A stretch of 64,000 nucleotides of DNA from a virus: positions 32,001-96,000 of IMG/VR virus record IMGVR_UViG_3300030099_006395; one strand, given 5' to 3'. The position numbers and the translations under genes were made by a program. The notes under the pieces were generated by a model. The model saw nothing but the letters and a program-made list of their open reading frames with translations, made no database searches and was not told the origin of the DNA. How positions within the stretch are numbered: position 1 is the stretch's first letter; each line of letters opens with the position of its first letter. Shown in pieces: positions 8,344 to 62,062 of this stretch.

Positions 8344-8674
8344 ATTAGATAAAACAGATAGTAAAGTAATACATTCAAATGAAACATATGATGTTATAGA
8401 TAATACAAATCTAAATAATCTTATAGTTTCAAAAACTATATTACATGAGGGAAAAGAAACTGGTGGTCACAATCACAAAGGACAAGAAGAAGTTTATATA
8501 TTTACAGAGGGTTCTGGTGTGATGCAAATAGATGATGAAAAGTTTTTAGTTACGAAAGGTGATATAGTATTAATACCAGATGGAGCATTCCATAAAGTAT
8601 TTAACACAAGTAACTATAAGGCAAACAATCCTTTAATATTTGTATGTGTATTTGATGGTGGGAGAAATCATTAA
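8333..8674 (+). CDS. Cupin domain protein
   Basis: GHNH..QEEVYIF..G.G and GDIVLIP.GAFH motifs; ATG 8333 follows AAGGAAG. Confidence 0.85.
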   Translation: MKIKLDKTDSKVIHSNETYDVIDNTNLNNLIVSKTILHEGKETGGHNHKGQEEVYIFTEGSGVMQIDDEKFLVTKGDIVLIPDGAFHKVFNTSNYKANNPLIFVCVFDGGRNH

Positions 8675-9299
8675 AGTATCTGATTTTATAATAGAACCTG
8701 TACCTCGTAGTGCTATTCAATCATTTGTACATAAATGGCATTATTCACATGATACTAATGGTGTACAACAAACACAATGTTTTGCTTTGTTTGATGACAA
8801 TAGAATGATAGGTGCTATGATATATGCTTTACCATCCATGAAATCAACAGCAGCAAAATATAATCCAGATAATCCTGATAGGTGTTGGGAGTTACGAAGA
8901 TTATGTTGTATTGATGATACACCAACAAACACAGAAAGTTATTTTATAGGGCAGACTTTAAGGTGGATAAGACAAAATACTGATATAGAAGTTATTGTAT
9001 CTTATGCTGATTTAGAACAAGGGCATGAAGGAGTCATTTATAAAGCCACTAACTTTCATTATTTAGGCCAAAGTGGTGGTGGTAGAAATTTAATGGTAGA
9101 TGGAAAAAAGTTTCACGCTAGGTCTTTAAATCAAAAAGAAAAACCCTATGGTAGGGATTTAAAAAGAAGATGGGAAAACAAAGAGGGGCATAGTTTTTGG
9201 GATTCAAAACAAGATATGTATTTTGTAAATACAAAACCAAAAAATATCTATGTTTATTACTTAAATAAAAAAATAAAAAAGAAATTACTTAAAAAATGA
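8655..9299 (+). CDS. Mom-like GNAT-fold DNA-modification protein (copy 1)
   Basis: HYSH, WELRRL, NTESYFI, VSYAD..QGH.G.IYKATNF; start uncertain (8640-8676). Confidence 0.8.
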   Translation: MVGEIIKVSDFIIEPVPRSAIQSFVHKWHYSHDTNGVQQTQCFALFDDNRMIGAMIYALPSMKSTAAKYNPDNPDRCWELRRLCCIDDTPTNTESYFIGQTLRWIRQNTDIEVIVSYADLEQGHEGVIYKATNFHYLGQSGGGRNLMVDGKKFHARSLNQKEKPYGRDLKRRWENKEGHSFWDSKQDMYFVNTKPKNIYVYYLNKKIKKKLLKK

Positions 9300-20002: not shown

Positions 20003-20215
20003 ATGAATAAATTATTAATGGCAGCTATTGATAGTTACCAAGCACAAAAAACAGAAGCACTAGCTCATTTGGATTTATTGTTCAATGATGCCACAATGAT
20101 AGGTGAACACACAGATTTAACAGCTGAAGTAAAAAAATGGACAATGAGTTTAGCAGAAGCTGAAGGTTGTTTAAAAGTATTGGATACACATTTTTATGTC
20201 GGTAAATCCAAGTAA
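20003..20215 (+). CDS. Hypothetical helical protein
   Basis: ORF with IGEH motif, packed operon. Confidence 0.55.
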   Translation: MNKLLMAAIDSYQAQKTEALAHLDLLFNDATMIGEHTDLTAEVKKWTMSLAEAEGCLKVLDTHFYVGKSK

Positions 20216-20951
20216 AATAACCATAAGAGAAATCTCAAAGAAGATAGCCAAAGATATGATTGTAAAAAATCATTACAGTCACAAGTGGACAAGTTGTAGA
20301 TACGCTTTAGGTATATTTTATGAAACAGATAACCAACACGCATTCTTTGATGAGAAGGATGAGAAGTTAGCTGGTGTGGCTATCTATGGTTATCCTGTTG
20401 GAAGAAGTGCTCCTAAATCTATCTCACCTGAATTAAAGGAAGAAGAAGTATTAGAGTTGACAAGGTTATTTATCTTTGATGATTATGGTAAGAATACAGA
20501 AAGTGTGGTTTTATCTAAAACATTTAATTGGTTAAAGGAAAACGCTAGTGAGATAAAAGTATTGGTAAGTTATTCAGACCCAGAACAAGGACACTTGGGT
20601 ATTATTTATCAAGCTACGAATTGGATATATCAAGGTAATAGTATAAGGTTAATGCCTAACTACGCTATACGACTTACAGAAGATGGTACTTGGATGCACT
20701 CACGAAATGTAACAACAAAGTTTGGTTCTCATAACCTTGAGAAACTAAAGAAAAGAATCGGACACACATTTTGGAGAAAGGAAGAACCTGAAAAACACAG
20801 ATATTTGTATTTGTTATGTGGTAAGAAAGATAAGAAAAAGATTATGAATACATTGATACATAAACCTAAGCCTTATCCAAAAGATGCTTATCAATTTTAT
20901 CCAGAGATACAAAAGATTGAAGTAACTTCAAAGGAAAAATTTTATGAATAG
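20196..20951 (+). CDS. Mom-like GNAT-fold DNA-modification protein (copy 2)
   Basis: HYSH, LELTRL, NTES, VSYSDPEQGH.G.IYQATNW, KHRY, PYPK. Confidence 0.82.
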   Translation: MSVNPSKITIREISKKIAKDMIVKNHYSHKWTSCRYALGIFYETDNQHAFFDEKDEKLAGVAIYGYPVGRSAPKSISPELKEEEVLELTRLFIFDDYGKNTESVVLSKTFNWLKENASEIKVLVSYSDPEQGHLGIIYQATNWIYQGNSIRLMPNYAIRLTEDGTWMHSRNVTTKFGSHNLEKLKKRIGHTFWRKEEPEKHRYLYLLCGKKDKKKIMNTLIHKPKPYPKDAYQFYPEIQKIEVTSKEKFYE

Positions 20952-43952: not shown

Positions 43953-43960
43953 GAGATAAT

Positions 43961-44161
43961 ATGAAAGATATAAAAGGTACTAAATTAAAAATAAGTGACA
44001 GAGTTAGAATAGAACAAGATATACCATCGGTAAATGGCATGTTATACAAAAATACCATATGTAAAATAGATAGTCTTGAAGAGAGTAAATTAAGAGTTCA
44101 AGATAGAAGTGGAAAACTTTGGTGGGTACAATATAGTCAAGTAAGTGCGAGTTTTTTATAA
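43961..44161 (+). CDS. Small beta-barrel hypothetical protein
   Basis: AGGAGA RBS; ORF. Confidence 0.55.
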   Translation: MKDIKGTKLKISDRVRIEQDIPSVNGMLYKNTICKIDSLEESKLRVQDRSGKLWWVQYSQVSASFL

Positions 44162-44376
44162 TGAGTGATGAGTTAACAAAAGAACAACGAAAAGAACTAG
44201 AAAAATTAATAAAAAAAATAACAGATGACGCTAAATCTGTTGTTGAAGATTATGTTAAAAATCCATCTACAATAAGTGGTAGTGCAGAAATACACATTCA
44301 CGAAAATAGTCCATGGTTAGATGAAAATAAAAAATTTATACCATTAACTAAAAAAAGAAAAAAAAATGTTAATTAA
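44161..44376 (+). CDS. Hypothetical protein
   Basis: ORF coupled to neighbours. Confidence 0.5.
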   Translation: MSDELTKEQRKELEKLIKKITDDAKSVVEDYVKNPSTISGSAEIHIHENSPWLDENKKFIPLTKKRKKNVN

Positions 44377-44776
44377 AGAATTTATATCAGAAACAAATAA
44401 AAACAAAATAATTTCAGATTTATTGAAACACTACAAAGTTGGTAGTGTTAAAGTAAAACTAAAAGCTATGAAAAATCATGCACATTACAATGTGGATACA
44501 GGTACATTAGAATTATCTACACGATATAAAACAATTAAAAACAGACAGTTAAAAGAGTTTTTGATTACAATACTTCATGAAATTTATCACGCAATGGATG
44601 CCAAGAAATATGGTTGGAGAAAGTTCAAAGATATGTATGAATATGAAATGAACTTACAGATAGCTAAGGGTAAACATCAGTATAAAGATAATAAATTTGA
44701 AATAGAAGCTGAAGACTTTGGCCAAAAAAATTGGAAAAAATGGGATACCAAATTTAAAAAAGATGGTTTAATTTAA
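44366..44776 (+). CDS. HExxH zinc metallopeptidase-like protein
   Basis: ILHEIYHAMD plus downstream FEIEA. Confidence 0.75.
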   Translation: MLIKEFISETNKNKIISDLLKHYKVGSVKVKLKAMKNHAHYNVDTGTLELSTRYKTIKNRQLKEFLITILHEIYHAMDAKKYGWRKFKDMYEYEMNLQIAKGKHQYKDNKFEIEAEDFGQKNWKKWDTKFKKDGLI

Positions 44777-44780
44777 ATCC

Positions 44781-44836
44781 TGTTACATATTGTTACAATT
44801 AAAACCTTGGCGAATGTCAAGGTTTTTTCGTATATT
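44781..44836 (+). promoter_or_regulatory. TGTTACA-N3-TGTTACA box plus promoter
   Basis: Box 44781-44797; TTGGCG-N18-TATATT; overlaps inverted repeat AAAACCTTGGC/GTCAAGGTTTT. Confidence 0.65.
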
Positions 44837-44841
44837 ATAGT

Positions 44842-45198
44842 ATGATTGAGAGAGAAAATATTAAAAAAGGAGAAAATATGGTTTCAATTAACGGAATAGA
44901 CTACATTGATTTAGATAGTGTAGGTTCAACACTTACAAAAGATTTAAAAGTATTTCCACAAAATATAACAGAAGCACCAGAAACTGCTAGTGAAGCTGAT
45001 GAATTGATGGGTGTCCATGTTTATGATTTAAATGATGAATGGTACAATAATTTGAGTGCTGATGATTTAACAGATTTCTTTGAATTTATAGAGTTAAATA
45101 CTGATGTTGTGACTACTGTTTACAAGGCTTGGAAAGATGGTATTTGGGGTGATTGGGAAACAGCGAATAATTGTTACTTAAATATGGAGGCTATATAA
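44842..45198 (+). CDS. Acidic hypothetical protein
   Basis: ORF; alternative start 44878 has AAGGAGA RBS. Confidence 0.55.
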   Translation: MIERENIKKGENMVSINGIDYIDLDSVGSTLTKDLKVFPQNITEAPETASEADELMGVHVYDLNDEWYNNLSADDLTDFFEFIELNTDVVTTVYKAWKDGIWGDWETANNCYLNMEAI

Positions 45199-45370
45199 TG
45201 GCTATCTATTCTAATATACCAGGTTCAGGTGGAAAAACAATTCCGATTGATTTGATTTGGGATGGTGAAGATACCAAATGTGACAAGTGTAAAAAATTAA
45301 ATGTAAATATAGAGTATAAAGGTAAATCGTATTGTACTTGGTATTGTGCAAAAAAAAATTAAAAAAAACG

Positions 45371-45399
45371 TTGACTGGTTATCCAGAAAGCCGTATATT
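45371..45399 (+). promoter_or_regulatory. Sigma70-like promoter cassette
   Basis: A-tract, TTGACT-N17-TATATT, then ATAGTATAATTAAAAAGGAGT. Confidence 0.75.
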
Positions 45400-45684
45400 A
45401 TAGTATAATTAAAAAGGAGTTTTATTATGGGTTTATTAAAAGGACATATACAAGATTGGTTAGAAGAATTTGGTTATGATTTGGGATATGATTGGGATAA
45501 TCTTCCTGATTTATCTGATATGAATGAAAACACACCACCAGCGTGGGAGACGAAATAATGGATTTAACAAATTTAGTACAACAATTTGCAAATGTAGGTT
45601 TAACGATATTCTGTGTAGTTGTAGGTGTAATATTAGTTAATTGGTTAGATAGGAATGTATTTAATAAGACAAGGAGAAATAAAG

Positions 45685-46074
45685 ATGATAAATGGGATTA
45701 AACCAACAATAGGTAATACTACTAAAACTGAAAAGACAACTACAAAGAATGGTTTATCCTTTGATGAAGCGATGGATACACTACTTGTTAAGATACAAGA
45801 GAATTATGATAAGTGGTATTCAGGAACTGATTATGAATCCAAGAAAATGAATCTATCACTTAAACCAGGTAGAAAGTTTATTAAAGTAGTTCACGATAAT
45901 TCAGTATGGGGATTTGTTGCTAAAGTGGATGGTGTACATAAAGGTGTACCAATGTTAAAGGGTGATATATTAAAAGCTGCTACTTGGAGTCAACCAGCAA
46001 AACATTCAAGAGGTTCTATATTTGATTCAGAGATGCACAAGAGTTTTTCTTGGACAGGACCTAATTATCTGTAA
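45685..46074 (+). CDS. Conserved hypothetical phage protein
   Basis: GRKFIKV...SVWGFV...GDILKAATW..PAK..RG motif; AAGGAGA RBS. Confidence 0.7.
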   Translation: MINGIKPTIGNTTKTEKTTTKNGLSFDEAMDTLLVKIQENYDKWYSGTDYESKKMNLSLKPGRKFIKVVHDNSVWGFVAKVDGVHKGVPMLKGDILKAATWSQPAKHSRGSIFDSEMHKSFSWTGPNYL

Positions 46075-46379
46075 TGAGTTTTACAGAGGGTGATGAAAAA
46101 TGGATAAAAAATTGGAAACCAAAAGGAGTAAAAATGAAACCAACTAAAAAAAGGCCAGCTAAAAGAAAACCATTACATGGTGAAAGTAATCCATTAGTGG
46201 CTAAGTTATTAAATTTAAAGTATCGTTTGAATGACGCTTATAATTTAAGAGATATTGATACAAAGTATGATAAGAATTGGGTTATGAATTTAATAGAAGA
46301 TGTAAGAACAAATAATTTAACTAAATTATGTAAAGAAGATATGTTAAAATGTAACGCATTATGGAAAACATATGAATAG
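46074..46379 (+). CDS. Hypothetical protein
   Basis: ORF; strong RBS favours internal start 46134. Confidence 0.55.
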   Translation: MSFTEGDEKWIKNWKPKGVKMKPTKKRPAKRKPLHGESNPLVAKLLNLKYRLNDAYNLRDIDTKYDKNWVMNLIEDVRTNNLTKLCKEDMLKCNALWKTYE

Positions 46380-46839
46380 ATTTTATCGTAAACCCAAACC
46401 AGAAACCATGAAGAAAAATAGAGAAGCTTATAAAAAATCTTATAAAGAAGAAATTTTATGGTTAAAAGTTAATCTTCAAAAGTTAACGGAAACTAAAAAC
46501 AAATTTTTGTTGGATATGTATACAATATTGATATCAGGCAGTAGAAAAATTACACCTAAAATGTCAGAAGCCATTAAAAAAGGTATTGAAAGATGTAATA
46601 ACCATCCAAAATTTAATAATGTTGTACGAGTTGAACAAGAGGCTAAACTAAAACCTATACTAGAGAAAATCGCTATGGTTGAGAGGTTGGCTGAATCCAA
46701 GAATGATAAAGCACTTGGGTTTATTCAGAATGTAAAAGAATATGTGAAAATAAATTATAGAGTAACCAAGAAACAAATGGAAGCTCTAAACAAAGTGTAC
46801 AAAAGGTGTAGTGAAGATTTATTTAAAGGAGATGAATAA
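46372..46839 (+). CDS. Hypothetical protein
   Basis: ORF with two similar helical segments (KITPKM / RVTKKQM). Confidence 0.55.
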   Translation: MNRFYRKPKPETMKKNREAYKKSYKEEILWLKVNLQKLTETKNKFLLDMYTILISGSRKITPKMSEAIKKGIERCNNHPKFNNVVRVEQEAKLKPILEKIAMVERLAESKNDKALGFIQNVKEYVKINYRVTKKQMEALNKVYKRCSEDLFKGDE

Positions 46840-47087
46840 TGAAAGGTAGTAGATTAGTAGATGTATTGGATGATAAACCAACTTTCCAAAAATGGAGAGA
46901 GATATTTGGTAAGATGAGAAAATTAGGAACGGCTATTGAAATGTTTCATGGTCCAGATATGAATATTGATGATTTGGATTACAGATGGGTTAATGATAGG
47001 ATTGAATACTTTGATAAAAAGAAAAGATTGTTAACCAAAGATGAGATGACAATAGCTAATAATTTATGGAAAAAATATAACAAATAA
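46839..47087 (+). CDS. Hypothetical protein, apparent paralogue of 46074..46379
   Basis: Shared WV....E......L.K.(D/E)M...N.LWK.Y C-terminus. Confidence 0.55.
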   Translation: MKGSRLVDVLDDKPTFQKWREIFGKMRKLGTAIEMFHGPDMNIDDLDYRWVNDRIEYFDKKKRLLTKDEMTIANNLWKKYNK

Positions 47088-47098
47088 AAGGAGTCAAA

Positions 47099-47308
47099 AT
47101 GACAGTACAACAAATAGTAGCAGAATTAGAAAATATTAAAGAACAAACATTAAATAATAGTCAAATCACAACAGATGATGTTATTGAAGCTATTGATGAT
47201 ATAATATCAGATTGTAAAGACAATAGTTTAGATTTTACTTTTGATGATGAAGACCACTATGGTTCTTTTGAAACTGAAACTGATTTTACGAAATTGGAGA
47301 TAATGTAA
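47099..47308 (+). CDS. Small acidic hypothetical protein
   Basis: AAAGGAGT RBS. Confidence 0.55.
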   Translation: MTVQQIVAELENIKEQTLNNSQITTDDVIEAIDDIISDCKDNSLDFTFDDEDHYGSFETETDFTKLEIM

Positions 47309-47887
47309 ATGGAAAATATATTACAAACAATTGATAACAATTATCAAAAAACACTTGATGAATGTTATAAAGCGTATAACAACAAAGAAATGGGAGTTGT
47401 TCGAGAGTCTATGGGTAAACTTGTAGAAAACTTTGTAGATGATGTATGTGATATGTTGAATGAAAAATTTGATGTTGATATTGAATGTAAATTCGGAGAG
47501 TCAGATAGGATTCCAATTACAAATGAATCAGGTAGAGTTTTAGGTTTTCAAGTTGATAAACATATTTACATAGATTCTAAATTGAAAGCTATAGTAGAAT
47601 GTAAATCTTATTTGGACCGTTCTATGTTGATAAGAGCTTCTGATGATATAGGTCGTATAAAAAAAGGTATCAATCACGATATAAAAGGATTTGTATTATC
47701 TTTAGAAAATGCAGTAGCTAAAACAGCAGAGGACTACTTGTTAGATGAAGGTAATGTAGATAAAATATTTTATCTTACGGAAGGTAAAAGAAACTCTTAC
47801 AGACAAATATGGAGGCCTGAATTTAACAAAGAATTAAATAAAAATGTTATGAAAGAATTTATTCAAAATTTAATAAATCTTTTTTAA
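47309..47887 (+). CDS. Restriction-endonuclease-like PD-(D/E)xK protein
   Basis: QVDKH...IVECKSYLD. Confidence 0.6.
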   Translation: MENILQTIDNNYQKTLDECYKAYNNKEMGVVRESMGKLVENFVDDVCDMLNEKFDVDIECKFGESDRIPITNESGRVLGFQVDKHIYIDSKLKAIVECKSYLDRSMLIRASDDIGRIKKGINHDIKGFVLSLENAVAKTAEDYLLDEGNVDKIFYLTEGKRNSYRQIWRPEFNKELNKNVMKEFIQNLINLF

Positions 47888-47895
47888 AAAAAACG

Positions 47896-47925
47896 TTGAC
47901 TCATATGGCTATTTAGCCGTATATT
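47896..47925 (+). promoter_or_regulatory. Sigma70-like promoter of the DUF2828 operon
   Basis: TTGACT-N18-TATATT; nearly identical to the promoter at 52970. Confidence 0.75.
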
Positions 47926-47962
47926 GAAACAATAAAAATAAACGATAAACTTTAAGGATAAT

Positions 47963-49333
47963 ATGAACTATACAACAACTACAAATGGAGCGATAACAAA
48001 CAAAACATCAGACAAAGAATGTTTAGATTTGTTTCAACGCATTGGTAACATGAGAAATCATGATAGATTGTATATCCTTGAAAATTTCAACAAGGCGTAT
48101 GAGGAAGATAAAGAACTTGCAACACAAGTTCTATTTTGGGCGAGAGCAGCACGAATAGGTTCAGGTGAGAGAAAAACTTTTCACACAATCTTACGGGAGA
48201 TTGGAAAGACATCACCTGATTTTATATCAGACAATGCAAAACTCATTGCTGATTTGGGTTATTGGAAAGACCTAATTGAGTATTTCCATATACCAAAGGT
48301 TATATCAGTTTTCGCCCAAGCAATTCGTGAAAAGGATAGGTTAGCATGTAAATGGGCTCCAAGAAAGTGTGCGGTATTAAGAGATGAACTTGGTTTCACT
48401 AACCGAGAATACAGAAAATGGTTGAAGAGATATTCTGAAACTGTTGAACAAACGATGTCTGAAAAAGAGTGGTCTGATATAAACTATTCATCCGTCCCCG
48501 GTTCTGCTATGAGACGATATAGTGGAGCATTTACTAAACAAGACAGTAAACGATTCGATGAATGGAAAGAGGACAAAACCACAAAGGCATCTGTATCAGC
48601 TACCTATCCACACGAAGTGTTAGCTTGTGATGATGACAAGTTAGCAGAAAAATTATGGGATAACTTACCTGATTTATTATCAGAGAGTGAAGAGAATATT
48701 CTACCAATGATTGATGTGAGTGGTTCAATGATGGGAAAACCATTAGCAGTCGCAATGTCATTAGGTATGTATTTATCTGAAAGAACTAAAGGTGAGTTTA
48801 AAGATTTATTTTTAACATTTAGTGAGAATCCAGAGTTAGTAAGATTAGAAGGTGATTCAGTAGCAGAACGATTGAGAAACATATCACAGGCAGATTGGGG
48901 CATGAATACAGATTTCAGTAAAGCATTTCAACACATATTAGATGTGGCTACAAAACACAATGTATTGCCCGATTCGATGCCAACTATGTTATTGGTGTTA
49001 TCAGATATGCAATTTGATGAATCACAGAACAGTAGTTTTTATGGTAGTAAATCAATGACACACTTTGGACATATGAAAGAAGAGTATGAAAAAGCTGGAT
49101 ACAAATTACCAAAGATAGTGTTTTGGAACTTGGATGCACATATGGGAACACCAGCAAGATGTTCTGATGATTCAGTAGCGATGGTTAGTGGATTCTCACC
49201 AAGTATTATGAAAGCAGTGTTAAACGCTGAAGAGTTCAATCCAATTAGTGTAATGATGGAAGCACTTAAAGATATTAAACCAGATTGTAATAATTTACCA
49301 TCAGAATTTGAATATAAAAGAGAGACGATATAA
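47963..49333 (+). CDS. DUF2828-family protein (helical domain + vWA; Ro60/TROVE-like architecture)
   Basis: T.NGA, G.GER, GYWKDL, KWAPR, MIDAS DVSGSM, FLTFS..P, WGMNTDF, LSDMQFD, VFWNL, VSGFS. Confidence 0.85.
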   Translation: MNYTTTTNGAITNKTSDKECLDLFQRIGNMRNHDRLYILENFNKAYEEDKELATQVLFWARAARIGSGERKTFHTILREIGKTSPDFISDNAKLIADLGYWKDLIEYFHIPKVISVFAQAIREKDRLACKWAPRKCAVLRDELGFTNREYRKWLKRYSETVEQTMSEKEWSDINYSSVPGSAMRRYSGAFTKQDSKRFDEWKEDKTTKASVSATYPHEVLACDDDKLAEKLWDNLPDLLSESEENILPMIDVSGSMMGKPLAVAMSLGMYLSERTKGEFKDLFLTFSENPELVRLEGDSVAERLRNISQADWGMNTDFSKAFQHILDVATKHNVLPDSMPTMLLVLSDMQFDESQNSSFYGSKSMTHFGHMKEEYEKAGYKLPKIVFWNLDAHMGTPARCSDDSVAMVSGFSPSIMKAVLNAEEFNPISVMMEALKDIKPDCNNLPSEFEYKRETI

Positions 49334-50370
49334 TGCAAAAGTACGATAGAAAATATTTTGAAGATAATTTTGATAAACCACATATCCCTAATATACCTGA
49401 TAGTATTAAGGTAAAATCAATAAGGAAAAAAATACTTAAAATAAGTGACATAAATAGTGATACATTTTTAAGTCAAATTAGAGTAAACGATGATATAGCT
49501 GCTAGAGCTACAAGATTAAACGGATCATTTAATACAGGAATTGATTGGGATAGTCCACTACCAATAGTGAAGTTAAGAGATGATGGTGGTTATGATTTAA
49601 TAGATGCATTTGGCAGATTTCAAATGTTTGAATTGAATGGACAAGAATACTGGATTATGATTGTTGTAGAGTGTGATTCACATAATGAATTGAGGTTAAG
49701 AGGGTGGGCTAATAAACAATTGTTTATAGTACCAAACTCAACGAAAGATAATATTGAAACAATATCTACCATGGTTAGAAAAAAAATGATTAAACCTACG
49801 AAAAGAAATTTTACAAGGGAATTAAATATCATTGAACCACATAAAGACCCTGATATAAAAAAGGATATAGTGAATCAATTGATGGATGTTTTTAAGGTAA
49901 AATCAACTGTAAAACCTAAAAGATTTGTTTCATATTCAGCAGCAACCATAATGAAAAATTGGGTTAAACCACATTTCGCTGATGAAAAGAAAATTGGGTT
50001 TAAGTTAGGATCAAAAGGTGAACCACTTTTTAGTAAATTAGCTAATTGTTATTTTGGTATTTTACAATATAAATATGAATATAGAAAAGTATTACAAGCT
50101 ATAGAGATGAATGTGAGAAAAAATGCTCCATTGAAAGTTTTAGGTTTATCAGAGGGTAAAGGTATGACAATGAAGAAACTTAAAAATGATAGAGCTGGTA
50201 TTAAAAGAAATATAACTAAAATAACTAATAATATTGATAAACTTGTTTCAAAATACCATGGTGAAGAATCTAAAATTAAGTGGGAAGAGGTTATAGATTT
50301 ATTTGGTTTTATACCTGAAAGTGTTAATGAAGATGTAAAAGAACCCGTAGAATATAAGGAGATTGTATAA
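49333..50370 (+). CDS. Hypothetical protein with ParB/Srx-like N-terminal region
   Basis: PLPIV......YDLIDAFGR resembles the ParB IDG..R motif; coupled to DUF2828 gene. Confidence 0.5.
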   Translation: MQKYDRKYFEDNFDKPHIPNIPDSIKVKSIRKKILKISDINSDTFLSQIRVNDDIAARATRLNGSFNTGIDWDSPLPIVKLRDDGGYDLIDAFGRFQMFELNGQEYWIMIVVECDSHNELRLRGWANKQLFIVPNSTKDNIETISTMVRKKMIKPTKRNFTRELNIIEPHKDPDIKKDIVNQLMDVFKVKSTVKPKRFVSYSAATIMKNWVKPHFADEKKIGFKLGSKGEPLFSKLANCYFGILQYKYEYRKVLQAIEMNVRKNAPLKVLGLSEGKGMTMKKLKNDRAGIKRNITKITNNIDKLVSKYHGEESKIKWEEVIDLFGFIPESVNEDVKEPVEYKEIV

Positions 50371-50412
50371 ATAAATTACGTGTTTGATGTAATTTGTATA
50401 TATTTATATATA

Positions 50413-50684
50413 CACTTAACCCTACAGCACTACTCACTTAAAAGAAAAGCGAATAGAGCAGGGTGGTAAGGGAAACCGAAACTGAAAGTATCAATGGGGT
50501 TACCGAAAGGTTTGAAAAAGATATTAGTAAGTGGTGAACCGAGTCCATCCATAATATAAGAGGATGTAATATGTTATAGTTAAGATAATAGTTACGGATT
50601 AGAAATGTCATAGTTGGTCATACAGCACTTTACAAAATGATAACAGAATAAATCAAAAAAAAAGACCACCGAAAGGATATGACA
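50413..50684 (+). ncRNA. Putative structured RNA with two TACAGCAC stem elements and several GAAA tetraloops
   Basis: No ORF; stems ACCCT/AGGGT, TGGTC/GACCA, TGTCATA/TATGACA; follows TATTTATA motif at 50401. Confidence 0.55.
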
Positions 50685-50712
50685 AAAAATTAAATAAAAG
50701 AGGTTATAAAAT

Positions 50713-51177
50713 ATGTCAATAGATTATCAAGAGTTAACAGGTAAATTAATAATAGAAAATGGTGAATTAAAAAACCAATTGTCACATGCACTAAAAGAAT
50801 TAGAAGATGTGTACAATATGGTAGAATCAGAACCTAATGATATGGCTTTAGGTGAAATAGTTAGACAACATTATTGGGCAAATACAGAGGAACCAGAATC
50901 CACAGAAGAACCTATATACATTTATGAATCTCCTGATGAAGGTAAAACATTGTATAGAAGACGAGTTGGTGAAACTGTAAGAGAACAAGTAGAAACACCT
51001 GAACCACCTGTTAGTAGAGAAAGAGCTGAAGCTAGATTACAATATTTAAGAACAGAAATAGCTCATGAAGATTATCACGATGGGTGGACTCTTCAGGGTA
51101 TGAAAGACGAAGTGGAATGGTTAGAAAATCAGTTAGGTATTGATAGTAAACAAATGGAGTTGTTCGACAATCATTAA
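50713..51177 (+). CDS. Acidic hypothetical protein
   Basis: YIYESPD.GKT.Y.R motif; ends QMELF. Confidence 0.6.
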   Translation: MSIDYQELTGKLIIENGELKNQLSHALKELEDVYNMVESEPNDMALGEIVRQHYWANTEEPESTEEPIYIYESPDEGKTLYRRRVGETVREQVETPEPPVSRERAEARLQYLRTEIAHEDYHDGWTLQGMKDEVEWLENQLGIDSKQMELFDNH

Positions 51178-51231
51178 AGCGAAAGAAAATTTTTTCCAGA
51201 GTGGACGGGAAAGCAGTCGCGTAAGTCAAGT

Positions 51232-51876
51232 ATGATTATAAAGGACAATGTAATAACCAATAAAGCTTTATTACAATCAATTCAAAATGATAAGAATAAT
51301 ATATTCATGGAAGATGGTTGTTATTCTCTTTGGTATCCAGGTGAAAGCGTACAAAACACTACAGAGCTTATCATAGAACACCTTATAAAGTTATTGGAGT
51401 TAGATATAAGTAAATGCGTGTCAATAGAACATTGGACATTTCCATCAACAAAATTGACAGCTTCTAATCGATGGCATAGGAATACAAACGTAAACAATGA
51501 AGGCCATGTGTTAAGACAAATCACACCTATTTATTCTCTTGTTTACTTTCCAATACCTATCGATATAGAAGGCGGTTATTTAGAAATTAGTTCAAAGCGT
51601 GGAGATATAACACCTTATGATAAACAAGGGCGGAGAAATGAAGAAGGATTGTTAATAGATTTACTGCCAAATCATAAAGAAATATTGGGTGAACTTCAAA
51701 GAATAAAACCAGTATATAATAGAGCGATTGTATTCGACGGTGACTTATGGCATAGAGTTAGTCCACATATAGGAGACAGATGGTCCTTGTCGGTAGACTT
51801 TTGGAGAGAAGATATTCTCGATGATTTTCATTGTCGAGATTTAATATATGGAGAATCAAATGAATGGTATAACTAA
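51232..51876 (+). CDS. 2OG-Fe(II) oxygenase-like protein
   Basis: WH, GGYLE, NR..VFDG..WH.V, RWS. Confidence 0.7.
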   Translation: MIIKDNVITNKALLQSIQNDKNNIFMEDGCYSLWYPGESVQNTTELIIEHLIKLLELDISKCVSIEHWTFPSTKLTASNRWHRNTNVNNEGHVLRQITPIYSLVYFPIPIDIEGGYLEISSKRGDITPYDKQGRRNEEGLLIDLLPNHKEILGELQRIKPVYNRAIVFDGDLWHRVSPHIGDRWSLSVDFWREDILDDFHCRDLIYGESNEWYN

Positions 51877-52189
51877 ATGGTTAAGTAGCAAATGGAATTT
51901 GTTGGGTATGTTTATGTTGAGTTATTTTGTAATAGGATATATATTTGATATAGTAGGCGTTAGCTTTAATAATATGATTGTCTTATTTGTCTTTATGTAT
52001 ATAGGTAACTTTGCGTCTTACTTATGGGGTATGAGTAAAGGTATTATGTACGCTACAACACAACGGCCTAACTTTATACAAGAATTAGAAAAAATGAACG
52101 AAATGATAAGAGAAGAAAACACCAGTACATCAAAGAAGTGTAAGAAGAAAGCCAAAAAGTGTTCTTCAGATAGATGTAAAAATTGTTAG
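51848..52189 (+). CDS. Two-TM membrane protein
   Basis: Two hydrophobic segments, basic/Cys tail. Confidence 0.6.
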   Translation: MENQMNGITKWLSSKWNLLGMFMLSYFVIGYIFDIVGVSFNNMIVLFVFMYIGNFASYLWGMSKGIMYATTQRPNFIQELEKMNEMIREENTSTSKKCKKKAKKCSSDRCKNC

Positions 52190-52260
52190 TGTTTTCTTTA
52201 TTTTCGTATATTTATATATACAATAGTTATAACACAATTCAATTATAGGAGATATAACAA

Positions 52261-52584
52261 ATGATACGATATAAGAATAGAGTATTGCCAGTATGGATAC
52301 AATGGGATGGCGATGAACAATACTTCGAGAGAGCCAAACAATCTATTATAGATGATATAAGACTTAATGGTTTAGACCATTATGATGGTTACGCTGACTT
52401 ACATGATATGCCTACTGAAGAAGAGAAACAATGGGATGGTTCACCTGCACAAGAGAAGATTACTAAATCAAGTAAATCTACTAAATCAACTAAAGCCAAT
52501 AAGTCTCTACCTAAAGGGAATACACCTAATATGGATAAGTTCGCTGATAAGGGTGGTTCTAACGACAACGAGACTGCGTCTTAA
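52261..52584 (+). CDS. Hypothetical protein
   Basis: AGGAGA RBS; repeated QWDG. Confidence 0.55.
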   Translation: MIRYKNRVLPVWIQWDGDEQYFERAKQSIIDDIRLNGLDHYDGYADLHDMPTEEEKQWDGSPAQEKITKSSKSTKSTKANKSLPKGNTPNMDKFADKGGSNDNETAS

Positions 52585-52752
52585 TCAATTACACACTCAA
52601 TTATTATTTCCATACATTAGATATGGGTAGTAGTGGAGTATAGTGGGTTAATGTGGTGAATTTCCATGTTATAGATAGTTTACCGTAGGATTTTATAATC
52701 TAAAATAGACACGATTATATAGAGTACACATGCGTCGTAAAAAACAAAATTT

Positions 52753-52817
52753 TGTTACAAATTGTTACACTTTTTTTAAGAAAAACGTTGACTTGTATCG
52801 CGTAAAACCCCTATATT
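52753..52817 (+). promoter_or_regulatory. TGTTACA-N3-TGTTACA box plus promoter
   Basis: Box 52753-52769; TTGACT(52788)-N18-TATATT. Confidence 0.7.
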
Positions 52818-52969
52818 ATAGTATAAATTAAAGGAGTATGCTTATGATATTAGAGTTATTATTCAATCCATTCGCGTGTGTAATGTGGTTTTGGTTGGGC
52901 GTTTTCGTCTGGAGTTGGTTATCTACCGCGAATTAATGTAAAAAAAACGTCTTTTTTTGTAAAAAAACG

Positions 52970-52999
52970 TTGACTCATATGGCTTTTTCGCCGTATATT
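52970..52999 (+). promoter_or_regulatory. Sigma70-like promoter of the putative ncRNA
   Basis: TTGACT-N18-TATATT with no ORF downstream. Confidence 0.72.
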
Positions 53000-53178
53000 G
53001 TAGTATAAGATTTTTGAAATGAAAGAATTAGTGGGAGTACAAGGGGTATAATTCCCGACGGGGGCATACTTACTTAAAGAGAGACAATACACTAGCGTAA
53101 CCCACCTCTCGCCCACGGCTAGTTTAAAGGTAAATGACGGGTAGTTACTCTATAAGAGCCTATGTATTTACCACTTTT

Positions 53179-53250
53179 GCGGGGTAAGAATCAAGAGAGA
53201 TTCGTTATACTACCAGTATAAAGGGTGTGGGGCAGTTCCACAACCCCGCT
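53179..53250 (+). tRNA. Non-canonical tRNA-Gly(ACC)-like cloverleaf
   Basis: Acceptor GCGGGGT/ACCCCGC+T; D-like arm GAATC/GATTC; anticodon arm TTATA-CTACCAG-TATAA; T-like arm TGTGG-GGCAGTT-CCACA. Confidence 0.6.
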
Positions 53251-53390
53251 CAACGAGAGAAACCTGCATACTTGAGTAAGGTGAGAATATTTCTCCGAAC
53301 CACGTTTCGTTAATATTCATACCTATCACCATACTTCAGTCCCTCCAGGTTCTCTCCTCACACTTGATCATGGGTGTATTATACGCTCTA

Positions 53391-53430
53391 GGGTGTCAGT
53401 TTTACTCCTTTCTCTGGCACCCTTTTTTTT
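53391..53430 (+). terminator. Intrinsic terminator with anti-SD loop
   Basis: GGGTGTCAG-TTTTACTCCTTTCT-CTGGCACCC-T8. Confidence 0.85.
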
Positions 53431-53433
53431 GCC

Positions 53434-53498
53434 TGTTACATATTGTTACAAATTAAATGAAATAAAACGTTGTATAGTACGCCAGAAAGCCTTATATT
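53434..53498 (+). promoter_or_regulatory. TGTTACA-N3-TGTTACA box plus promoter of AAA+ gene
   Basis: Box 53434-53450; TTGTAT(53470)-N17-TATATT. Confidence 0.68.
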
Positions 53499-53533
53499 TG
53501 ATCGTAAGTTAAATGATAAAAAAAGGAGTATTT

Positions 53534-54724
53534 ATGTCAAAACAAATTTTAACCCCCGATGTTGTAGTGAGGATAGAAAAGTCCGGTAATCGTTACAACG
53601 CGTGGGATACTGATGGTAATAAACGAACATCAGAGATTACATCTGGTTGTAGGAAGAACGCCTTTAATGGTGGTTATCTATTAGGTAGGTTTCCTTCTAC
53701 TGCCTCTAAATCTGGTTTCGCGTGGAGGAAAGTTACTGATTCTGTTGTAGAAACAGCAACTCCTGTCGTGGATAATTCCTCAATAGAGGTACCGACCGAC
53801 CACGCTGAAGTTCTTAATTTTATACACTCTTCTTACTCTTTAAAACCAAAGATGTTAATGATGTCAGAACTTAAATGGAAGTATCTGATTCGTTCTGGTG
53901 TTAGAGGTAAGAATATTATGATGACAGGCCCTGCGGGTTGTGGTAAGACTATGGCAGCTAAGTCATTGGTTAACTCACTTGATAGGCCTGACTATTACTT
54001 CAATTTAGGAGCGACACAAGATCCTCGTTCTACTCTGATTGGTAATACTCACTTCGATTCAAAGAAGGGTACTTACTTTTCAGAATCTCTCTTCGTGAAA
54101 GCGATTCAAACACCAAACGCCGTGATACTATTAGATGAGTTATCAAGGGCTCACCCAGACGCATGGAATATCTTAATGACAGTTCTCGACTATGGGCAAA
54201 GATATTTAAGGTTGGATGAAGCTAGTGGGGCTGATACTATTAAGGTTGCAGATGGTGTTACTTTCGTTGCCACAGCAAACATTGGTAATGAGTATACTTC
54301 TACTAGAGTTATGGATAAGGCCCTCATGGATAGGTTCACTATTGTTGAGATGGATGTACTAACAGAAGAGGACGAGAACTCTCTTCTTAATATGATGTTT
54401 CCTTCGGTTGACTCTGTACTACTAGGTAATGTGGCTAAGATAGCGACACTAACAAGAACCGAGTCTGGTAGTGAAACAGCTAGGATTACTAGTGGTATTA
54501 GTACGAGAACCACGGTAGAGTTATGTGGGTTACTATTCGATGGCTTCTCATTACAAGAAGCGGCTGAGGTCAGTATCTATCCCCAGTATGATAACACTGG
54601 TGGGGTAGACAGCGAGAGAACCTTTGTGAAGCAGATAGTCCAAAAGTTCTGTGATGACGGCTCAAGCGATGACTTGTTCAATGAGGACGAGATGGCTGAG
54701 GCGACAGAGGACACTACCTACTAA
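53534..54724 (+). CDS. MoxR/CbbQ/NirQ-type AAA+ ATPase
   Basis: GPAGCGKT, LLDELSR, FVATAN, D.ALMDRF, ISTR; AAAGGAGT RBS before ATG 53534. Confidence 0.9.
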   Translation: MSKQILTPDVVVRIEKSGNRYNAWDTDGNKRTSEITSGCRKNAFNGGYLLGRFPSTASKSGFAWRKVTDSVVETATPVVDNSSIEVPTDHAEVLNFIHSSYSLKPKMLMMSELKWKYLIRSGVRGKNIMMTGPAGCGKTMAAKSLVNSLDRPDYYFNLGATQDPRSTLIGNTHFDSKKGTYFSESLFVKAIQTPNAVILLDELSRAHPDAWNILMTVLDYGQRYLRLDEASGADTIKVADGVTFVATANIGNEYTSTRVMDKALMDRFTIVEMDVLTEEDENSLLNMMFPSVDSVLLGNVAKIATLTRTESGSETARITSGISTRTTVELCGLLFDGFSLQEAAEVSIYPQYDNTGGVDSERTFVKQIVQKFCDDGSSDDLFNEDEMAEATEDTTY

Positions 54725-54733
54725 ACCTCTTTA

Positions 54734-54761
54734 GGGGGGCGGTTATTCCTTTCCGCCTCCC
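54734..54761 (+). terminator. GC-rich hairpin after AAA+ gene (terminator or RNA-stabilising element)
   Basis: GGGGGGCGG-TTATTCCTTT-CCGCCTCCC; lacks a clear U-tract. Confidence 0.5.
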
Positions 54762-54895
54762 AACTTACAACTTGAAAAGATTTTTCACTTTACGTTAAAG
54801 TATTACTTTAACGCTCATACCCATGCACATCCCGAGGAGAAATTTTTCACGTATAGCAAATTACGTATATGTATTTACACACAAGTGTGTGAGTC

Positions 54896-54950
54896 TGTTA
54901 CAAACTGTTACAATTAAGCTGTTGTCTACCACCCTATATACCCTTATATT
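54896..54950 (+). promoter_or_regulatory. TGTTACA-N3-TGTTACA box plus promoter
   Basis: Box 54896-54912; TTGTCT(54922)-N17-TATATT. Confidence 0.68.
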
Positions 54951-54977
54951 ATAGTATAATTAAAAGGAGTTTTATTT

Positions 54978-55217
54978 ATGGTACATGTAGCGGAAATAGT
55001 AGTTGAACAAGGTAATGAAAACCTTGACGTAGATGGATGGCGTGTTTGTTCATTTTGGGATGAAGACGTTGATGGTAATGAATTTATGAATTTTGAAGTA
55101 GCGTATTGGAGAGGTGGTTCTATAGAATGGGCTTCTCTTAATGATTCTCTTCATTACTTTAGGAGTTGGAGTGACGCTGTAAATTTTTATGAAGATGCAA
55201 TAGAAGGAGTTGTATAA
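54978..55217 (+). CDS. Acidic hypothetical protein
   Basis: AAAGGAGT RBS. Confidence 0.6.
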   Translation: MVHVAEIVVEQGNENLDVDGWRVCSFWDEDVDGNEFMNFEVAYWRGGSIEWASLNDSLHYFRSWSDAVNFYEDAIEGVV

Positions 55218-55401
55218 TATGATTAGATATGTTCTATCATTTTTATTGTTATTTTTAATAGGTTGTTTTGATGATGATAGTTGTGTTTCAAGTAATGCAC
55301 CCTTTATACCTTCATGTGAATGTTTAGACACTTCCGAATGTGAAGATGGATACAGGTGTATTGATAATGAATGTAGACTTATTTTAAATGAGAATGATTA
55401 A
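55210..55401 (+). CDS. Small Cys-rich lipoprotein
   Basis: LFLIGC lipobox-like signal; six further Cys. Confidence 0.6.
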   Translation: MYNMIRYVLSFLLLFLIGCFDDDSCVSSNAPFIPSCECLDTSECEDGYRCIDNECRLILNEND

Positions 55402-59966: not shown

Positions 59967-60040
<74 letters not shown>

Positions 60041-60043
60041 CAT

Positions 60044-60386
60044 GGGGTCGACATGGAATCGATTGCTAGATTTTTGACATAAAGTGCAAGTAGCGTGATT
60101 CACTCACGAATCAAACATACGATAATCGGCAACGAATATCAATACATGGCAGTAGCGTAGTCTACTTCCCATCACTCCTTGATTTCTGATAGAGGATAAA
60201 GTGGTGTCATATCAGAAGAACCTCCTTTATGAATGGGTTGGGAGAATACTAATTTACATTCCATCTTTGAGCAAACAGATGTAAAACAGTAATCTGACTT
60301 TGTTAATAAGAAAGAAATTAACTAAACTTGTAAATGACTTTATGTAGGAAACTGGTAAGACGGGGGTTCGAATCCCCCCGACTCCA
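60044..60386 (+). ncRNA. ssrA: tmRNA
   Basis: 5' GGGGTCG pairs with 3' CGACTCC-A including G3.U70; GGGGGTTCGAATCCCCC T arm; tag frame 60128-60160 GNEYQYMAVA*. Confidence 0.93.
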
Positions 60387-60397
60387 CAAATTAAACG

Positions 60398-60432: not shown

Positions 60433-61353
60433 ATGAATAATATTGGTTATGCATGTATTAACATGAATCTATCTAAATGTAAACCGAAGATTACTACTAA
60501 TCGTAGTATGATAAAAAGAACATTTACAGAAAAAGGTTTACCATACGCATCTGAACTAGCGTTACAAAATTGTAAAGACTTACTTACAATACTCAAGTGG
60601 AACAAAGCTAATGGTATTAATTTCTTTCGTATGTCTTCAGACCTTATACCATGGGCTTCTGAATACAAGTTGGATGATTTACCAGACCATTGGGATATAG
60701 TAGCTACATTGGGTGAATGTGGTAAGTTTGCTGAAGAGAATAATATTCGTATTACATCTCATCCTGGTCCTTTCAATGTTCTTACCTCACCACATGAACA
60801 TGTAGTTGAGAATTGTATCAAAGACTTGTCTATACATGGTGAAGTGTTTGACATGATGGGTTTATCTCGTACACCATACAACAAGATTAATATACATATT
60901 GGTGGTGCTTATGGTGACAAGGTATCAGCTATGGAACGATTCTGTAAAAACTTTCATCGTCTACCAGATTCAGTTAAGTCTCGTCTTACGGTTGAGAATG
61001 ATGACAAGGCTTCTATGTATTCTGTCGTTGATTTGTATGAGGGTGTATACAAGGTTATAGGTATACCGATTGTATTTGATTACCATCACCATAGATTCTG
61101 TACAGGTGGACTGACAGAAGAAGATGCACTTGAAGTTGCTATATCTACTTGGCCTACTGACATTGTACCTGTTGTACACTATTCAGAGTCTCGTAGTAAA
61201 GAACAACTAGATGAGTCTATTAGACCACAAGCACATTCAGATTATGTACTTGACTATATTGACACCTATGGTAATAGAGTTGATATTATGATAGAAGCAA
61301 AAGCCAAAGAGTTGGCTGTTATGAAATACAAAGAGTTACATGGATTATGTTAA
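60433..61353 (+). CDS. uvsE: UV DNA damage endonuclease
   Basis: IGYACIN, FFRMSS, HPGPF, NIHIGG, VENDD, VFDYHHH, VHYSES, AHSD, MIEAK.KE. Confidence 0.95.
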   Translation: MNNIGYACINMNLSKCKPKITTNRSMIKRTFTEKGLPYASELALQNCKDLLTILKWNKANGINFFRMSSDLIPWASEYKLDDLPDHWDIVATLGECGKFAEENNIRITSHPGPFNVLTSPHEHVVENCIKDLSIHGEVFDMMGLSRTPYNKINIHIGGAYGDKVSAMERFCKNFHRLPDSVKSRLTVENDDKASMYSVVDLYEGVYKVIGIPIVFDYHHHRFCTGGLTEEDALEVAISTWPTDIVPVVHYSESRSKEQLDESIRPQAHSDYVLDYIDTYGNRVDIMIEAKAKELAVMKYKELHGLC

Positions 61354-62062
61354 TACTAATAAATTAATAGTAAGAGAAGTTACAAAGTCTATAGCTAAAA
61401 AGATGGTAGTTAAATATCATTACTCTCACCTATGGACAAAGTGTTCTGTTGCATTAGGATTATTTTATAACACAGGTAAACAACATTCTTTCTTTGATGA
61501 AGAAGAAGAAAAGCTTATCGGTGTTATAATATATGGTGACCCGATTGGTAGACATAGTGGTGGTTCTATATCAGAGTTATTAGATAGAACTGATGTATAT
61601 GAATTAACAAGGTTATATATCCACGATGGTTATGGTAGTAATATTGAGAGTTGGTTTATCTCTCAATCTTTTAAATGGTTGAAAGAGAATACAAACATCA
61701 AGGCTTTGATATCATACGCAGACCCAAAAGAAGGACATGCTGGTACAATCTACCAAGCCACTAATTGGATATATCAAGGTAATAGTATTAGACCAAATGA
61801 TACATATAGTTTTAAATTGAAACCAGACGATGAGTGGATACATGGAAGAACATTGGCTAATACATATAAGACAAATGATATAGAGAAGTTAAAGAAAAAA
61901 ATTGGACATACCTTTTGGTATAGAGTAGAACCGTTGAAACATCGGTATGTATATCTACTAAAGAATAAAAGGAAGTTAATGAAACACTTAAAGCATCCTA
62001 TTAAGCCATATCCGAAGGCGGATGATGTAGATGATTTAAAAGTAACAAAGGTGGTGGTATGA
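61340..62062 (+). CDS. Mom-like GNAT-fold DNA-modification protein (copy 3)
   Basis: HYSH, YELTRL, N.ESWFI, ISYADP..GH.GTIYQATNW, KHRY, PYPK. Confidence 0.82.
   Translation: MDYVNTNKLIVREVTKSIAKKMVVKYHYSHLWTKCSVALGLFYNTGKQHSFFDEEEEKLIGVIIYGDPIGRHSGGSISELLDRTDVYELTRLYIHDGYGSNIESWFISQSFKWLKENTNIKALISYADPKEGHAGTIYQATNWIYQGNSIRPNDTYSFKLKPDDEWIHGRTLANTYKTNDIEKLKKKIGHTFWYRVEPLKHRYVYLLKNKRKLMKHLKHPIKPYPKADDVDDLKVTKVVV

Follow-up and report, generated by a model that had tools for sequence, protein, structure and literature searches.

What does an uncultured marine virus encode in a strongly folding stretch of about 420 nt that lies just upstream of an AAA+ ATPase gene? The stretch belongs to the 64,000-nucleotide window analyzed here (bases 32001-96000 of a 113-kb IMG/VR record that is 63% complete, G000 below), and a sequence-only reading had described it as a stand-alone structured RNA of unrecognised class. 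We found that positions 52966-53430 on the + strand of the window are a real non-coding RNA gene, running from promoter to terminator. Its predicted transcript is made up of four folded modules in a row (M1 to M4), each conserved on its own and with compensatory changes. The third of these, M3, looks from its sequence like a non-decoding tRNA look-alike and is probably a ribosome-insulated glycyl donor for the Mom enzymes of the phage. The sequence-only reading was thus right that no catalogued family accounts for the whole, and its single RNA class gives way to four modules that occur separately in many combinations.

A consensus scan placed a promoter of the form AACGTTGACT-N18-TATATT at 52966..52999 on the + strand (TTGACT-18-TATATT at 52970-52999), which puts the presumed transcription start near 53006. 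No open reading frame (ORF) of at least 40 aa was found on the + strand within 52999-53430. The unit closes with an intrinsic terminator on the same strand, a 9-bp GC-rich hairpin (stem 53391-53399 with 53414-53422, GGGTGTCAG/CTGGCACCC) followed by eight T residues (U8 in the RNA) at 53423-53430, which a simple terminator scanner missed because the loop is 14 nt long. The last 69 nt at the 3' end fold with a z score of -5.5, and the stretch as a whole beats its shuffles on the + strand (z = -3.3) and does not on the - strand (z = -1.4). A promoter of its own, no ORF and a GC-rich hairpin with a U tract are the marks of a stand-alone, intrinsically terminated small RNA gene, which is what the sequence-only reading had proposed. 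The GC enrichment that it also named is only partly distinctive, with a GC content of 0.42-0.45 over 53000-53399 against 0.27-0.36 upstream but a downstream gene that is just as GC-rich. An Rfam scan of the region returned nothing at the gathering score or at E<=1, and when 52800-53600 was compared with all 4227 families at E<=10 only chance-level matches to Lnt, LhrC and suhB/mmgR appeared, on the terminator or the CU-rich loop; the absence of a catalogued family is therefore confirmed at these thresholds, and covariation, as described below, is strong.

The promoter is one of eight copies of AACGTTGACT-N18-TATATT on the + strand of the window (3428, 16857, 44803, 47892, 52784, 52966, 59920 and 60394), where 0.33 would be expected; one copy stands immediately 5' of a tRNA-Arg/transfer-messenger RNA (tmRNA) pair and another immediately 3' of the tmRNA, and a relative, G001, retains the copy that belongs to the RNA unit. 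That this promoter is shared with the DUF2828 gene had been noticed in the sequence-only reading, and the two are indeed 95% identical over 40 nt, but as members of a phage-wide class. A special link between the RNA and DUF2828 through the promoter was rejected, the same class driving the tRNA-Arg/tmRNA unit (59967-60389) and five other units. Beyond the terminator, a TGTTACA-N3-TGTTACA box (53434..53450, + strand) separates the unit from the AAA+ gene. It occurs four times in the window (44781, 52753, 53434 and 54896) against 0.08 expected, and relatives conserve it behind their M4 terminators. The box sets the limit of the RNA unit and suggests that the AAA+ gene is controlled separately. 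Direct-repeat boxes of this kind resemble a phage transcription-factor site.

Module M3 occupies 53179..53250 on the + strand. It has an acceptor stem of 7 bp and A8, then a D-like stem of 5 bp that closes the loop AAGAGA, an anticodon-like loop reading CU-ACC-AG, the variable region AGGG and a T-like arm whose loop is GGCAGUU, with the U at 53250 as discriminator; CCA is not encoded. The window copy folds with a z score of -4.1 and scores 93.6 bits (E = 8e-24) with our model R1, in whose seed alignment it was included, and independently found members score 72-93 bits. An exact 26-mer from the cloverleaf matched no viral contig. A two-motif pattern built from the D-like and T-like loops (TCAAGAGAGA...GGGCAGTTC) retrieved 56 viral contigs, whose base composition spans AT-rich to very GC-rich, and 36 distinct copies were assembled into the family alignment A3. 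In A3 the 22 pairs of the cloverleaf are 97% paired and 16 of them show changes on both sides; the covariation score is 0.733, whereas shuffles give 0.165 and slid partners no more than 0.13, so the cloverleaf drawn in the sequence-only reading is well founded.

The M3 cloverleaf satisfies tRNA geometry (7-bp acceptor, D, anticodon and T stems), yet the universal bases U8, G18-G19 and T54-Psi55-C56 are absent, anticodon loops in the family are 6 to 8 nt long, and position 33 is not always U. A search of the 113-kb genome with the tRNA family RF00005 (family threshold 29 bits) gave no match to M3 even when relaxed to E<=10, and ARAGORN run on the window calls the tRNA-Arg and the tmRNA only. 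Because tRNA finders miss it, the core bases are lacking and the anticodon loop varies in length and at position 33, M3 is unlikely to act as a decoder. What is invariant in the 36 sequences is G1:C72, C2:G71, A8, AAGAGA, C35, C36, GGCAGUU with G53:C61, and U73, and position 4:69 is purine:pyrimidine in all 36. The determinants of the bacterial alpha2beta2 glycyl-tRNA synthetase (GlyRS) are G1:C72, C2:G71, C35, C36, U73 and a preference at 4:69 (PMC10464925); the window copy holds this full glycine identity set.

Some loci carry elements that differ from M3. A variant cloverleaf at two loci (L115:6161-6234 and L121:1145-1218) shares the D and T loops but not the acceptor stem, has A as its discriminator and carries the anticodon-like loop AU-GGU-AC; it has no Mom gene nearby and may carry another identity. 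Upstream of M4 at L259:25-97 stands a cloverleaf whose T loop, GGUUUGAUUCC, is almost canonical and whose D loop is AAGGAAGA; it resembles a form midway from normal tRNA-Gly to the look-alike. A different element precedes M4 at L020:2556-2651 and at L182, L203, L237 and L257. It carries two T-arm-like hairpins (UUCGACU, UUCGAUU) and an acceptor-like closing helix, is unrecognised by ARAGORN and Rfam, and may be a second kind of tRNA look-alike.

The sequence-only reading had placed the cloverleaf within an RNA of unrecognised class; by these comparisons it belongs to a family of tRNA-Gly look-alikes that accompany Mom genes. Among 48 other viral copies of M3, 38 lie 10-163 nt 3' of a Mom gene on the same strand. 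The window encodes three Mom paralogues on the + strand, which are the presumed users of M3: 8640..9299 (Pfam PF25680, 1.1e-39), 20196..20951 (Pfam Mom, 4.3e-52; full-length match to phage Mu Mom, PDB 8bv8, E = 3e-11) and 61340..62062 (Pfam Mom, 5.9e-51). Since the window cloverleaf is unlinked from Mom, co-occurrence was tested within its clade. G000 has one cloverleaf and three Mom genes, G002 one and one, G003 two and two, and G004 one cloverleaf and two Mom genes; G006 (95% complete), G007, G008, G009 and G010, all with M4, have neither (a weak 20-bit match to the M3 model in G008 was counted as zero), and G011, which has M4 and no cloverleaf, was not in the Mom search. Mom is therefore present in 4/4 clade records with M3 versus 0/5 with M4 but without M3. 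In metagenome contigs that extend at least 4.6 kb downstream, Mom was found at 4 of 7 cloverleaf loci versus none of 4 loci lacking the cloverleaf. These distributions indicate that M3 tracks Mom genes even when unlinked from them. The phage has one look-alike for three Mom paralogues, which may not share the same DNA sequence context or the same donor.

Mom of phage Mu transfers glycine from Gly-tRNAGly to the N6 of adenine in double-stranded DNA, and the product rearranges to N6-carbamoylmethyl-adenine (Silva et al., Nat Commun 2026, PMC13219725); that study employs host tRNAs and does not mention a phage-encoded carrier. The window enzymes belong to the same family, with three PF25680 paralogues, and presumably share the glycyl chemistry, but Mu Mom relies on host tRNAGly, whereas here and in dozens of other phages a look-alike accompanies the gene. 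A precedent for a reserved glycine carrier exists in Staphylococcus aureus, whose non-proteogenic tRNAGly species (NP1-3) are still charged by GlyRS but, with their D and T arms altered, interact poorly with EF-Tu and supply FmhB, FemA and FemB (PMC7826273). M3 would resemble these, as far as its sequence goes, as an extra glycine acceptor with altered D and T arms held in reserve for a tRNA-dependent transferase. The staphylococcal RNAs are, however, bacterial, are recognisable tRNAs and serve cell-wall synthesis, whereas M3 is virus-encoded, evades tRNA finders, has unique AAGAGA and GGCAGUU loops and has a presumed user that modifies DNA. A 76-bp tRNA-Gly-like 'pseudo-tRNA' was also reported inside a mom homologue in the ssrA islands of Dehalococcoides and left uninterpreted (McMurdie 2011, PMC3146451). 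It too is a tRNA-Gly-like cloverleaf physically tied to a mom homologue, but it is embedded in the coding sequence, whereas M3 is intergenic, far from Mom and fused to other RNA modules. The assignment of M3 as a probable glycyl donor follows from the use of Gly-tRNAGly by Mom together with the S. aureus analogue.

Immediately 3' of M3 lies M4, whose core spans 53255..53365 on the + strand and folds with a z score of -5.9. Its helix P1 has 7 bp, a 1-nt bulge and 4 bp (53255-53266 with 53343-53353) and encloses an invariant internal loop, CAUACUU / CAGUCCCUC, and a variable hairpin, next to which comes an invariant CUCAC tail. Homologues differ in the length of the enclosed stretch (20 to 108 nt); within it lie the nested helices GGTGA/TCACC and GAATATT/AATATTC, both present in the minimum free energy (MFE) fold. 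The 3' end of the module (53372..53430, + strand) consists of a small hairpin at 53372-53388 and then the terminator, and in relatives the CUCAC tail is likewise followed by one or two hairpins with UCCUUUC-type loops and a terminator. A pattern scan for M4 returned only the 11 viral contigs in IMG/VR and at least 120 stretches in marine metagenomes; the counts that follow are for 111 instances among the matches listed. In the alignment of the 11 viral loci (A4), five P1 pairs have changed on both sides. The 111 instances include 35 P1 variants; the four inner pairs form in 97-100% of instances, each as three to five pair types, and pairs 5-7 are looser. The long arm of the sequence-only reading (GAGAG..CCTG/CAGG..CTCTC) covaries. 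M4 is common in ocean metagenomes and absent from Rfam.

The pyrimidine-rich loops of M4 invite a functional guess. YCCUUUY motifs, one to four per tail, occur in 98 of the 111 instances, and the terminator loop UUUUACUCCUUUCU (53400-53413) is the exact complement of AAAGGAGUA and is complementary to the AAAGGAGU ribosome-binding sites of the phage. Eight copies of AAAGGAGT are found on the + strand, each ahead of a start codon, those of the two genes flanking the RNA included. All eight sites fall within 37074-55400 (18 kb), and the three Mom genes and the DUF2828 gene are not among the users. An AAA+ gene lies 3' of M4 on the same strand in 95/111 loci, at a median of ~335 nt. LhrC-type bacterial small RNAs pair with Shine-Dalgarno sites through CU-rich loops. 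M4 resembles them in bearing a terminator and UCCUUUC-type pyrimidine-rich loops complementary to ribosome-binding sites, but differs in its large conserved 5' domain (P1 and the internal loop), and with an LhrC match of 17 bits against a threshold of 110 it is not a member of that family. An anti-Shine-Dalgarno small RNA is our best guess for M4, offered tentatively.

The 5' half of the unit holds two further structured domains. M1 (53031..53123, + strand) combines helix b, formed by GTGGGA with its 3' strand at 53111-53116 (three covarying pairs), an inner hairpin CCC-GACG-GGG with an invariant GACG loop (3/3 pairs covary), helix a between GAGAG at 53079-53083 and CTCTC at 53106-53110 (variants GAUGG/CCAUC, GAGGG/CCCUC and GAAGG/CCUUC), and the crossing helix c between ACTAGC at 53091-53096 and GCTAGT at 53118-53123 (two covarying pairs; the helix is missing in two homologues). 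The nested MFE fold of M1 is unexceptional (z = -0.03), and the pseudoknot was provisionally dismissed on that value and on a lack of visible conservation; five metagenome homologues found by nhmmer and aligned as A5 reversed this decision. In the six sequences, window included, 10/25 pairs show changes on both sides and none of 500 shuffles reached the covariation score, a small sample that nevertheless bears out the GTGGG/CCCAC, GAGAG/CTCTC and crossing pairings of the sequence-only reading. M1 is thus a compact pseudoknot with covariation support. M2 (53129..53172, + strand) is the GGTAAAT...ATTTACC hairpin that the same reading had named, present in 17 homologues, 12 of them distinct, with strongly kept internal loops (GACGGGTAG..CTCT-NNA-AGAG..CCTATG) and one compensatory position in its stem, AAAT/ATTT to AAGT/ACTT. 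It occurs also in G001, and elsewhere it stands directly 5' of M4 without M3.

How freely these modules combine was assessed by a census of the elements between the nearest promoter (P) and M4 at ~112 loci among the matches listed. The most frequent architectures were P-M3-M4 and P-M4 (27 loci each; in some of the latter the promoter -10 lies a few bases 5' of P1), followed by P-M2-M3-M4 (9 loci) and P-M2-M4 (3 loci). The element with two T-arm-like hairpins preceded M4 at 5 loci; various arrangements with M1, tandem M3-M3-M4, and a manA-like RNA followed by M4 occurred at several loci each. The full set P-M1-M2-M3-M4 was seen only in the window. M3 and M4 are separated by 3-7 nt in 49/52 loci and by 4 nt in the window. 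In L004, L006, L007 and L008 the slot before M4 is filled by a manA-like RNA scoring 34-50 bits against an Rfam threshold of 55. These RNAs (e.g., L007:2321-2534) sit in stand-alone promoter-to-terminator units fused to M4, not in the 5' untranslated region (UTR) of a protein gene as usually described.

The manA motif (RF01745) was described as a riboswitch candidate in 2010 (Weinberg 2010, PMC2864571) and forms 10- to 60-mer RNA cages in vitro (2026 preprint, bioRxiv 10.64898/2026.07.01.735769). Like the window RNA it is a structured RNA of marine phages, and it occupies the same slot before M4 in four related loci. M1 resembles it in appearance only, through a GACG-loop hairpin and a GGGAG/CUCCC-type long-range helix; as no manA match was obtained at E<=10 in the whole genome or the region, M1 is not a manA member. 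M1 and M2 are by these comparisons structured domains whose place is taken in relatives by the manA-like RNA.

We think it fairly likely that the unit is a phage non-coding RNA operon of four independent modules in which M3 serves as a private glycyl donor for Mom. Under this proposal the standard promoter of the phage would start a primary transcript of ~425 nt near 53006, which the intrinsic terminator would end at 53430 and which would string together four independently folding modules. RNase P would release M3 at G53179, as it does a tRNA, and an endonuclease would cut behind U53250; CCA would come from the host, and host GlyRS would load glycine, as expected from the retained bacterial glycine identity set. 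Because it lacks U8, the GG of the D loop and the UUC of the T loop, M3 should be accepted poorly by EF-Tu and by the ribosome, and it would be left as a private donor from which the three Mom enzymes transfer glycine to adenine N6 in DNA. With less assurance, M4 could be released as a stable, terminator-bearing small RNA that might use its CU-rich loop and tail to bind ribosome-binding sites of the AAAGGAG type. The more specific version, a single RNA operon for a ribosome-invisible glycine carrier that is charged by the host, consumed by Mom only and co-expressed with the hitherto undescribed M1, M2 and M4 classes that swap with the cage-forming manA RNA, has in our view somewhat less than an even chance.

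Several observations weigh against this proposal. The window M3 is not beside a Mom gene and lies 8-45 kb from them. Mu Mom accepts all three ordinary E. coli tRNAGly isoacceptors in vitro (PMC13219725), and since it uses ordinary tRNAGly, a private carrier is not required. M3 encodes no CCA and its 3' end is 4 nt from the M4 helix, so release of a chargeable end is assumed; a search of the 63%-complete record for a CCA-adding enzyme (PF01743) gave none. An overall L-shape is reportedly required by GlyRS (PMC10464925), which the odd D and T loops may not preserve, and processing, charging and use by Mom are all steps that we infer. Transcription is weakly indicated by RNA-library contigs that overlap the unit: a 100% identical but short contig spans 52967-53139 (strand and ends not given), and contigs of a close relative run from M2 through M3 to M4 (of the GGUGCU type) without a break, which is compatible with an expressed, unprocessed precursor. 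The contigs, however, are short and leave parts of the unit uncovered, one begins 5' of the predicted start, and DNA carry-over could account for them. With regard to M4, complementarity between its tail and the AAA+ ribosome-binding site averages 7.49 nt within a locus and 7.56 nt across loci. Co-evolution of the M4 loop with that site was accordingly rejected, and the complementarity to ribosome-binding sites appears to be generic. Finally, all M4 loci fall in one phage lineage, so the adjacency to the AAA+ gene may be plain synteny.

Could the ~420 nt instead form a single integrated large RNA, a scaffold or self-assembling particle in the style of GOLLD, ROOL, OLE or the manA cages, whose cloverleaf is never cut or charged? 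The four modules are co-transcribed with no internal terminator, GA-rich and CU-rich segments are repeated along the RNA, a manA-like RNA fills the same slot in relatives, manA RNAs assemble into cages of 10 to 60 copies in vitro (bioRxiv 10.64898/2026.07.01.735769), and the relative's RNA-library contig covers M2-M3-M4 uncut. The 3-7 nt M3-M4 spacing in 49/52 loci likewise keeps this reading alive. We nevertheless consider it unlikely: the modules are found alone and freely recombining (M4 behind its own promoter, M2-M4, M3-M4), which favours an operon of separate RNAs over an obligate 420-nt machine; M3 occurs beside Mom genes without the other modules in unrelated phages; and the strictly conserved positions of M3 make up the GlyRS identity set, for which a scaffold would have no use. 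Another reading, that the cloverleaf is an ordinary phage tRNA-Gly(ACC) or a tRNA-shaped RNase P/RNase Z cutting signal that separates flanking RNAs, would explain its exact tRNA geometry and its position between two other RNA modules, and T4 clusters of tRNAs and stable RNAs are generally known to be processed in this way. An ordinary tRNA would not escape tRNA finders, lack U8, G18G19 and T54-Psi55, or show anticodon loops of 6-8 nt with a non-U33, however, and a cutting signal would neither fix C35, C36, U73, G1:C72 and C2:G71 across AT-rich to GC-rich phages nor track Mom genes; we regard this account as the most improbable of those considered.

Two further readings start from the neighboring genes. 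The unit could be a cis-acting leader of the AAA+ gene in which the upstream modules sense a signal and the M4 terminator decides read-through, as the same-strand AAA+ adjacency of M4, the proposal of manA as a 5' UTR riboswitch candidate (PMC2864571) and a sensor-like slot that varies before a constant, terminator-bearing M4 might suggest. In the window and its relatives, however, the TGTTACA box and a separate promoter-like site intervene between the terminator and the AAA+ ribosome-binding site, an alternative antiterminator pairing was not found, the M4 core is conserved far above the need of an expression platform, and the adjacency may be inherited within a single lineage; a leader is thus quite unlikely. 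The unit could also encode the RNA partner of the Ro60/TROVE-like DUF2828 protein in a Y-RNA-like ribonucleoprotein, perhaps remodeled by the MoxR-like AAA+ ATPase. The DUF2828/DUF7788 gene lies 5 kb upstream behind the 95%-identical promoter and DUF2828 is upstream in 5 other M4 loci, bacterial Y RNAs have tRNA-like domains (PMC7824862), P1 of M4 is a bulged helix, and MoxR-type ATPases usually partner vWA proteins. No Rfam Y RNA or YrlA match was obtained at E<=10, however, the promoter is of a general class with eight copies, the tRNA-like module follows Mom genes and not DUF2828, and of the two other contigs that reach far enough upstream one has DUF2828. We accord this reading a very low probability and continue to favour the operon of separable RNAs with M3 as a glycyl donor.

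Phage T4 carries a tRNA cluster with co-transcribed stable RNAs, and small RNAs such as 3'ETS-leuZ derive from tRNA spacers. The window unit would resemble both in combining a tRNA-shaped RNA with other RNAs on one transcript that tRNA-processing enzymes are predicted to separate; it differs from the T4 cluster in that the tRNA-shaped part appears non-decoding and its partners are large conserved structured domains. New here are the fusion of four modules away from any Mom gene, the clade test of M3 against Mom, the covariation of M1 and the census of architectures.

The genes around the RNA unit include a 2OG-Fe(II) oxygenase-like gene and, at 47963-49333, the DUF2828/DUF7788 protein (Ro60/TROVE-like with a vWA-like domain; phrog_850, 'RNA-binding protein'). 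Just 5' of the unit's promoter, at 52838-52936, lies a hydrophobic ORF of 32 aa that has a strong ribosome-binding site; its homologue at L187 continues into M4 with no intervening promoter. Directly downstream, where the sequence-only reading had placed an AAA+ gene, is an AAA_5 ATPase of the MoxR/midasin type (53534..54724, + strand; Pfam AAA_5, 3.6e-17) with midasin, NorQ and CbbQ as its nearest solved relatives. The listed ORF begins at ATG 53513, and ATG 53534 is the likelier start because of the strong ribosome-binding site AAAGGAGT at 53522. The tmRNA of the phage (60044-60389, 121.7 bits) has the tag GNEYQYMAVA, compared with GNEYQYAAAA in relative L257. A tRNA-SeC with anticodon TCA (Rfam tRNA, 30 bits; ARAGORN) lies outside the window at G000:C1:103634-103723 (locus L146:1500-1594), and at relative L177 an Rfam tRNA-Sec match (4811-4900) stands just 5' of the cloverleaf.

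G000 DNA is present in many marine metagenome runs. With the downstream AAA+ protein as query we gathered 80 viral loci, and nhmmer found RNA parts kept 5' of the AAA+ gene in ~12 of them, the cloverleaf and the long 3' arm being the most prominent. Most other relatives have a ~700-aa ORF 5' of the AAA+ gene for which neither a Pfam match nor a homologue in the window was found. Searches with blastn against cultured phages gave no match for the region or for a relative's manA+M4 unit, and since the nearest AAA+ homologue among cultured phages has 54% identity, there is no isolate to give context.

If the proposal is right, M3 would be the first virus-encoded 'non-proteinogenic tRNA' devoted to DNA chemistry. 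Mom hypermodification was linked to charged tRNAGly only in 2026, and the published picture is of a phage that scavenges host tRNA. M3 is kept in lineages from AT-rich marine to GC-rich soil phages and, within the clade, is present only where Mom is present; the look-alike need not adjoin mom and can share an RNA operon with three other conserved structured RNAs. The four modules are candidates for structural and functional study and for RNA-family curation, and M3 with the Mom enzymes of the window makes a simple testable pair. A dedicated non-decoding acceptor would mean that phages insulate the supply for DNA modification from translation, as staphylococci do for their cell wall.

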